DNA from: Escherichia coli
GTDB taxonomy: Bacteria > Pseudomonadota > Gammaproteobacteria > Enterobacterales > Enterobacteriaceae
DNA: 2,223 nt
NCBI RefSeq assembly: GCF_003334315.1
Contig: NZ_QOWR01000110.1
Direction: 5' to 3' (one strand)
In this document: positions 1-190 of the stretch, one piece after another
Layout: every line of letters begins with the position of its first letter
How positions within the stretch are numbered: position 1 is the first letter of the stretch
Notes under the pieces: model-generated
What the model was told of the DNA's origin: nothing
Database searches by the model: none
Seen by the model: only the letters and a program-made list of their open reading frames with translations
Translations under genes and position numbers: made by a program

Positions 1-71
1 GTGCTTTTGCCGTTACGCACCACCCCGTCAGTAGCTGAACAGGAGGGACAGCTGATAGAAACAGAAGCCAC
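1..71 (-). CDS. insA: InsA (IS1 transposition regulator; N-terminal part of the InsAB' frameshift transposase), 5' fragment only: GTG start at 71..69, then 23 codons reading MASVSISCPSCSATDGVVRNGKS; the rest lies outside the window
   Basis: Minus-strand translation from the GTG at 69-71 gives the zinc-finger-like CPSC-containing N-terminus I recall for IS1 InsA. Its position, 56 nt inside the IS1 terminus, matches the known IS1 layout. Confidence 0.85.
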   Translation of the reverse strand, partial: MASVSISCPSCSATDGVVRNGKS

Positions 72-103
72 TGGAGCACCTCAAAAACACCATCATACAC
101 TAA

Positions 104-126
104 ATCAGTAAGTTGGCAGCATCACC
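104..126 (-). repeat. IS1 terminal inverted repeat (IRL), about 23 bp
   Basis: Terminal sequence GGTGATGCTGCCAACTTACTGAT (minus strand) at the inner boundary of the IS1 fragment. The 9 bp immediately outside (127-135, tcgctttaa) is the candidate target-site duplication copy. Confidence 0.8.
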
Positions 127-155
127 TCGCTTTAAATATGACAGCATAACCTTTA

Positions 156-161
156 CATAAT
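156..161 (+). promoter_or_regulatory. Candidate -10 hexamer (cataat) for cdgI in the 64-bp leader between the IS1 end and the cdgI start; no convincing -35
   Basis: cataat matches TATAAT at 5 of 6 positions, about 30 nt upstream of the ATG at 191. The best -35 candidates at 17-18 bp spacing (taaata / ttaaat) are weak. Purely motif-based. Confidence 0.25.
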
Positions 162-190
162 TTAGTTCCAGAAAACAATCATTCGGAAAA

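Follow-up and report, generated by a model that had tools for sequence, protein, structure and literature searches.

In the 2,223-bp stretch of Escherichia coli DNA analyzed in this study (hereafter the window), the left end of an insertion sequence 1 (IS1) element stands 64 bp upstream of the start codon of cdgI (yeaI), a normally silent gene whose product binds cyclic di-GMP (c-di-GMP). The insertion divides the native yeaH-cdgI spacer, and the upstream half, which contains a published RstA box, no longer adjoins cdgI. We believe, with a probability of roughly 55%, that IS1 inserted here through its target preference and uncoupled cdgI from this upstream control half, that the proximal promoter candidates and an SrsR box were kept, and that no competent hybrid promoter was formed. 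The allele is a known kind of event, a commonplace IS1 insertion in AT-rich intergenic DNA. The structure of the insertion was observed, and it is from this structure that we infer its function. The features at and around the junction are as follows.

1-2223: the complete draft contig of 2223 bp (QOWR01000110.1, E. coli assembly GCA_003334315.1); the window is identical to the whole contig.
1-126, minus strand: left end of IS1, on the side of the left terminal inverted repeat (IRL), IS1 positions 126 to 1, with 126/126 identity to IS1A.
71-69, minus strand: start codon GTG of insA, IS1 position 56; insA reads leftwards, away from cdgI.
92-119, minus strand: inward promoter-like site CTGCCA-16-TATGAT, from the consensus scan, pointing away from cdgI.
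104-126, minus strand: the 23-bp IRL of IS1, GGTGATGCTGCCAACTTACTGAT on the minus strand.
113-118, plus strand: outward -35-like hexamer TTGGCA inside the IRL, 5/6 to TTGACA, 8 bp from the IS1 tip.
127-135, no strand assigned: right-hand copy of a presumed 9-bp target-site duplication, TCGCTTTAA, judged from sister IS1 alleles.
127-190, plus strand: retained native yeaH-cdgI spacer, 64 bp, identical to K-12 positions 3001-3064 (L001).
144-154, minus strand: retained published box for SrsR (YgfI), aaAGgTTaTGC, an exact match of the reverse complement (PMC9181523 Table 1).
191-1666, plus strand: intact cdgI (yeaI), 491 amino acids, from the list of open reading frames (ORFs), with Pfam MASE4 and GGDEF.

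The IS1 end was compared with the annotated 768-bp IS1A of E. coli TUM9812 on the IRL side, and 0 mismatches were found over window 1-126. Window 104-126 is the exact reverse complement of GGTGATGCTGCCAACTTACTGAT, which recurs with 0 mismatches in other IS1 copies. Translation from the GTG of insA opens VASVSISCPSCSATDGVVRNGKS, and Zn_ribbon_InsA (PF03811) was found on the called fragment 1-71 of the identical contig. The inward site CTGCCA-16-TATGAT recurs in the IS1 copies of L017 (TUM9812) and L029, and from established IS1 knowledge we take it to be the insA promoter pIRL. The contig begins inside the element, with 126 bp of IS1 in the window and 130 bp in LYBE01000080.1 (L013).

When window 100-330 was used as the query, native homology opened exactly at window 127 in 5,410 of 5,426 complete E. 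coli genomes, and the junction at 126/127 is therefore exact. An earlier note, made from the letters of the window, had read the end of IS1 at 126, a native leader of 64 bp before the ATG at 191, an insA directed away from cdgI, and an outward TTGGCA at 113-118; all of these readings agree with the comparisons. Both IS junctions (126/127 and 2146/2147) were also present in LYBE01000080.1 and in the Logan assembly of SRR10357290, and DABAWT010000125.1 (L015) is trimmed at most 2 bp inside both of them. This indicates that the IS1/native junction is real and is inherited within a small clone. An 80+80-bp junction probe found it in 0 of the 5,426 complete E. coli genomes, where the top full-coverage matches were gapped 88% alignments to another allele. 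The exact junction had 0 matches in species-representative genomes, and a protein-based scan of these genomes returned only IS-free orthologous loci in other Escherichia. The nearest IS-free relative found was EC291 (AP027445.1), with 2 synonymous single-nucleotide polymorphisms (SNPs) over 2,020 bp; its YeaH is identical to the ubiquitous WP_000219687.1. The lineage-private SNPs of the window, at 283 and 1459, are both synonymous. A Shigella origin, suspected from the presence of IS1 and an IS2-like element, was rejected, as the records of the exact contig and of its protein give E. coli.

The IS-free arrangement was taken from K-12 MG1655 (L001), in which position 3001 corresponds to window 127. 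The yeaH stop codon lies at 2918, an intrinsic terminator hairpin at 2923-2951, the insertion point at 3000|3001, and the cdgI ATG at 3065. The spacer is 146 bp long with 31.5% GC, and IS1 entered it 82 bp past the yeaH stop and 64 bp before the ATG. The insertion point lies beyond the yeaH terminator, and cdgI was probably receiving no yeaGH read-through before IS1 arrived either. An RstA box is listed for yeaI in enterohaemorrhagic E. coli (EHEC) as 'taca ttagct taca' (PMC6824119 Table S4). This published box, TACATTAGCTTACA, maps to K-12 2986-2999, and its end is 1 bp short of the insertion point; therefore, it has been displaced from cdgI. It abuts the insertion point in the IS-free allele and is gone beside cdgI in the IS1 allele, and no TACA-N5-6-TACA is left on either strand of window 1-400. 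In the EHEC rstA mutant, yeaI was 3.2-fold up, the effect of RstA on yeaI being negative, and a probe of about 400 bp covering the whole spacer is shifted by RstA (PMC6824119). The SrsR box lies in the retained half, and cdgI mRNA was 5.9-fold down in an srsR mutant (PMC9181523). The earlier note had expected upstream regulatory sites to be cut off from cdgI and had proposed a comparison with an IS-free locus; this comparison supplies the RstA box as a concrete displaced site and the SrsR box as a kept one.

IS1 has entered the same spacer on other occasions. By our own count with junction probes, it occupies five other positions of the 146-bp spacer, in both orientations, in 23 of the 5,426 complete genomes, and every spacer copy inspected was 768 bp long. 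These sister alleles are given below by the length of native leader that they leave before the cdgI ATG; IRR is the right inverted repeat and ETEC is enterotoxigenic E. coli.

117 nt to ATG: DLI.5a (AST46 likewise, by blast coverage); IRR faces cdgI; duplication TGATTTTT.
86 nt to ATG: 01G17CRGN001; IRL faces cdgI; duplication TATTACATA.
69 nt to ATG: EC21Z-137 and four others, and ET201 carrying another IS1 isoform; IRR faces cdgI; duplication TACAATCGC.
46 nt to ATG: BDSF8-3 (IS1A), and 203740 and O25 ETEC strains (IS1B); IRL faces cdgI; duplication CATAACCTT.
23 nt to ATG: TUM9812; IRL faces cdgI; no duplication, yeaH 3' end deleted.

The sisters carry the same element as the window at insertion points 5 to 53 bp away, and three of the five share its orientation; the exact position differs, with leaders of 117, 86, 69, 46 and 23 nt against 64 nt here. 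About 58,000 chromosomal IS1 left ends were detected, and the spacer holds a share of about 4e-4 compared with a uniform expectation of 3e-5 per copy (146 bp out of a genome of about 4.9 Mb), an excess of about 14-fold that ignores shared ancestry and is indicative only. IS1 reportedly prefers AT-rich DNA, a preference attributed to Zerbib and colleagues in 1985. Both orientations and varied spacings fit such a target preference better than selection for one hybrid promoter. A site for integration host factor was tried as an explanation of the hot spot and rejected, as the native spacer holds no match to WATCARNNNNTTR at up to 1 mismatch.

At the positions with duplications TACAATCGC and CATAACCTT (L002/L033 and L029/L030), each was found with different IS1 isoforms in the same orientation and with different CdgI or YeaH alleles. 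These shared positions reflect either independent insertions at the same nucleotide or later IS1-IS1 conversion. In total, about 100 complete genomes have the spacer interrupted in some way. In WP3-W18-CRE-03 (L016 2260-3117), IS200C lies between yeaH and cdgI, inside the yeaH terminator, and K-12 homology picks up again at about L001 2950, where the terminator hairpin has its 3' end.

For the allele in the window, we propose that IS1 would have landed through its preference for the AT-rich spacer and would have moved the upstream half, RstA box included, at least 768 bp away. The SrsR box and the proximal promoter candidates would have stayed by cdgI, and the outward TTGGCA would have no adequate -10 partner. 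Given the displaced RstA box, the kept proximal elements and the missing -10 partner, altered regulatory input, notably lost RstA repression, would be the likeliest outcome, with cdgI weakly expressed and not strongly on or off. If the insertion was simple, the left junction would read ...CTTACAATCGCTTTAA|GGTAATGACTCC, the sequence to the left of IS1 would run ...CATTAGCTTACAATCGCTTTAA and then GGTAATGACTCC, and the yeaH-cdgI interval would be about 0.78 kb above wild type.

A displaced operator and a hybrid promoter are possible, textbook consequences of IS insertion, and the allele is of little weight by itself. The allele parts a putative RstA operator from cdgI by one base pair, and this natural break is a ready-made test of the site. 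Together with its sisters, it gives a set of naturally shortened cdgI leaders (117, 86, 69, 64, 46 and 23 nt), which could locate the cdgI promoter. The alleles also document an IS1 hot spot beside the c-di-GMP gene cluster cdgI-dgcJ. A full-text literature search for an account of IS1 in the yeaH-cdgI spacer returned only a report of IS1 in dgcJ with a cdgI-dgcJ' deletion (PMC8117528) and unrelated papers.

The retained promoter candidates of cdgI are as follows.

152-179, plus strand: TTTACA-16-AACAAT, the lone sigma-70-like match in the native spacer, from the consensus scan of the window and K-12.
156-161, plus strand: alternative -10-like CATAAT (CACAAT in most other Escherichia), with possible partners TTTAAA/TTAAAT at 131-137.

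A rough position-weight scan gave several weak candidates at about 4-6.5 bits, compared with about 16.6 bits for a consensus promoter, a figure that is arithmetic from the same rough matrix. They are the retained TTTACA-16-AACAAT, TTAAAT-18-CATAAT and TTTAAA-19-CATAAT, and the native CTCATT-17-TACAAT. An Rfam scan of the window gave no matches.

Several points weigh against the uncoupling that we prefer. RstA binding is known for the EHEC probe of about 400 bp and not for the box by itself (PMC6824119). The number of matches in the consensus scan was not above that in shuffled sequence, so TTTACA-16-AACAAT is weak evidence, and it would begin transcription just about 5 nt ahead of the ATG. No mapped cdgI/yeaI start site was found in the start-site data searched (part of Cappable-seq, ROSE, Romero 2014, Kim 2012 and EDL933 Cappable-seq), a lack that fits a gene without expression under standard conditions. 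Footprinting with 6-7 Escherichia sequences gave 81-100% identity per 12-bp window along the spacer; conservation this close to uniform cannot choose between the candidates. In the spacer alignment, the SrsR-box stretch was the least conserved, and TTTAAATAT, TTTACA and ACAAT were invariant in 7 Escherichia sequences. The best native -10-like hexamer, TACAAT (L001 2996-3001), shares bases with the RstA box, and the junction cuts it as TACAA|T; were it the real -10, the insertion would have destroyed the native cdgI promoter. Finally, Richter et al. 2014 place a complete outward promoter slightly further inside the IS1 end that faces pgaA in strain 55989 (PMC4287979).

The split hexamer raises the first alternative, namely that the insertion broke the native, RstA-overlapped promoter and left cdgI transcriptionally dead with an intact ORF. 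We regard this as unlikely. TACAAT matches the consensus at 5/6 positions, among them A2 and T6, and its ACAAT is one of the invariant stretches. A repressor box over a -10 is a classical arrangement and would suit the negative action of RstA on yeaI, and loss of cdgI is tolerated, the gene being often broken or deleted elsewhere. However, the hexamer has no acceptable -35 at 16-18 bp (CTCATT), and the pair fails the consensus scan. The SrsR box would then fall downstream of the start, an unusual place for an activator site. The gene itself argues in the same direction, although there has been too little time for decay to show. CdgI has the MASE4 and degenerate GGDEF motifs, with EGEVF at residue 405 and an RPDD I-site at 396. 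The ORF carries no disabling change, and the protein is identical to WP_087893795.1 of the IS-free EC291. Window 414 (codon 75) differs from K-12 non-synonymously, giving Ser75 here and in EC291 and Leu75 in K-12.

The opposite alternative is that the IS1 end raises cdgI expression through a hybrid promoter, an internal outward promoter, or both. We consider this doubtful. The hybrid would use the -35-like hexamer in the IRL and the partner given here.

137-142, plus strand: TATGAC, the best -10 partner of TTGGCA, 4/6, without a final T, at an 18-bp spacer and 6.05 bits in the rough position weight matrix.

An outward -35 box in the IS1 inverted repeat has been described (PMC8764528; PMC4287979). 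TTGGCA has 5/6 matches and is accepted as a -35 by the consensus scan in TUM9812, and the 18-bp spacer to TATGAC is acceptable. The hexamers at proper distance are AATATG (16 bp), ATATGA (17 bp) and TATGAC (18 bp), and none of them has both A at position 2 and T at position 6. With 6.05 bits, TATGAC equals the best native candidates and is no better than the native background; it is missing the strongly conserved final T, and no hybrid promoter was called at this junction by the consensus scan. The same scan called the hybrid TTGGCA-17-AATCAT in the TUM9812 allele as a positive control, which indicates that it is able to detect such hybrids. The TUM9812 allele (L017 2200-3024) carries IS1A and has lost the yeaH 3' end along with most of the spacer, and its hybrid would start only a few bases before the ATG.

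For an internal promoter, the evidence comes from enteroaggregative E. coli 55989. Besides the complete outward promoter, Richter et al. 2014 report a strong -35-like region near the tip of the IS1 end facing pgaA (PMC4287979). That end, too, is an IRL with insA pointing away, and its sequence is the same as window 47-126, so the statement applies to the window's IS1 end as well. The top weight-scan match in window 61-200 was the outward TGGAGC-18-TACACT at 72-101, the sole internal outward candidate found and a possible match to the site intended by Richter et al. Its -35 has just 3/6 matches, and it fails the consensus scan too. The inverted repeats are also bound by InsA made from other IS1 copies; InsA sitting there should block TTGGCA, which likewise counts against activation.

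IS1 hybrid promoters are on record, for example at afaA, bla and acrEF, and a well-placed -10 is needed: in sequence type 131 (ST131), IS1 raised afaA by about 7 log2-fold, lowered osmB and left ugd unchanged (PMC8764528). CdgI was undetectable under laboratory conditions, and over-expression of its GGDEF domain is toxic, which argues against tolerated strong activation; CdgI is also repressed by CsrA (PMC5635695). The mixed orientations and spacings of the sister alleles also misfit selection for one hybrid promoter. Full-text literature for 'IS1' together with 'TTGGCA' gave only irrelevant papers. The earlier note had called the -10 candidates poor and had treated activation with caution. 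The scans bear out both points; its caution overlooked the full outward promoter that the 55989 paper states for this IS1 end (PMC4287979).

Among known systems, the IS1 upstream of pgaABCD in 55989 resembles the window in having the same IRL end, with insA directed away, beside a c-di-GMP-related gene and with the same TTGGCA as an outward -35. The authors argue there that the original -10 was kept at a usable distance and predict stronger expression, whereas the -10 in the window is poor (PMC4287979). In both the pgaA and cdgI cases, the promoter claim rests on reading the sequence. A hybrid bla promoter formed from IS1 is said to have been described by Prentki and colleagues in 1986. The IS1 fusion promoters of bla, acrEF, blaTEM-6 and, in ST131, afaA likewise place the outward -35 of the IS1 repeat next to host DNA (PMC9330008, PMC8764528). 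In those promoters, activation was either selected for or measured, and the -10 is well spaced, a feature that the window appears to lack.

The bgl operon is a silent, H-NS-bound locus that is activated by upstream IS insertion. Likewise, flhDC is activated by an upstream IS insertion (Barker et al. 2004, as cited in PMC4287979). The cdgI locus resembles H-NS-bound loci activated by IS1 or IS5 in being AT-rich, in carrying a promoter island and in being silent (PMC3661553; PMC5635695). The 5' region of cdgI has about 30% GC, window 101-700 has 30-32% GC, and the promoter island inside yeaI bears '+' marks in a table on H-NS complex formation (PMC3661553). H-NS silencing of cdgI is not known to depend on the displaced 82 bp, and in this the case differs from bgl and flhDC.

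The left junction lies out of view, since the contig starts inside IS1, and the element could therefore also be the scar of an IS1-mediated adjacent deletion or inversion. In this case, something other than the yeaH end would lie to its left, and the TCGCTTTAA duplication would be missing. TUM9812, with the same IS1 orientation, has indeed lost the yeaH 3' end and shows no duplication, and a deletion removed cdgI-dgcJ' from a laboratory strain that had IS1 in dgcJ (PMC8117528). At four of the five sister positions, the 768-bp element went in cleanly and is flanked by duplications of 8-9 bp, and we think such a rearrangement quite improbable.

The recurrent IS1 in the spacer could also reflect selection to rewire the normally silent cdgI, with the window allele as one adaptive case. 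Its premise is that there are six IS1 positions, the window's included, two of them taken by different isoforms in different backgrounds. If it were true, cdgI could be uncoupled from RstA/H-NS repression and show condition-independent, low-level expression. We give this idea very little credence beside the target preference described above.

An assembly artefact, in which IS1 at the contig end would stem from mis-joined repeat reads, is extremely improbable: short-read contigs do commonly finish in collapsed repeats and the IS1 portion is just 126 bp, but the same junction stands in independent assemblies from different pipelines (L013, NCBI; L014, Logan), and L015 is trimmed within 2 bp inside both junctions.

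Disruption also extends to cdgI itself and to the neighboring dgcJ (yeaJ). IS1A was found inside the cdgI ORF in the 24 top-ranked complete genomes, and in DA33133 (L028), the one inspected, it leaves MASE4 and GGDEF fragments. Several MG1655 stock genomes carry IS1 in dgcJ. For K-12 stocks, IS1 in dgcJ has been reported, together with a laboratory mutant carrying a cdgI-dgcJ' deletion (PMC8117528). IS1 thus often strikes the cdgI-dgcJ pair, whose disruption recurs in E. coli. The remaining features of the window lie at this side of cdgI.

1847-2146: first 100 codons of dgcJ, following the cdgI-dgcJ spacer after cdgI.
2147-2223: end of an IS2-like element of the IS3 family, which cuts off dgcJ.

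The gene dgcJ is cut after codon 100 by the IS2-like end, TAGACTGGCCCCCTGAATCTCC..., whose first three bases give a stop codon. As dgcJ is truncated by this element, the intact cdgI of this lineage has a different IS element on each side. The 100-amino-acid DgcJ fragment, looked up exactly, matched 91 collection blocks. The 8 longest contigs with this fragment (L003-L010) have several SNP backgrounds, some of them K-12-like, with an intact yeaH-cdgI spacer. All of them end 0-2 bp past one shared dgcJ position (...CCTGACTGCC[CA]), equivalent to window 2146-2148, and no IS sequence can be seen there. The dgcJ breakpoint may be a recurrent insertion or branch point, or an artefact of the look-up.

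The 77-bp IS2-like end occurs at 100% identity in 103 E. coli records, most of them plasmids. Its identity to the common chromosomal IS2 is only 90-95%. In LH09-a (L020, 6817-24111), an identical IS2-like element lies in an IS1-bounded island with qnrS1, IS26, ISKpn19 and tet(A). A GGDEF protein of LH09-a was considered as the missing 3' part of dgcJ and rejected, as it has 28% identity over the GGDEF domain and lies in the resistance island. The LH09-a island splits a DUF3592-domain gene between potD and ycfZ, next to the unrelated GGDEF protein of 318 amino acids.

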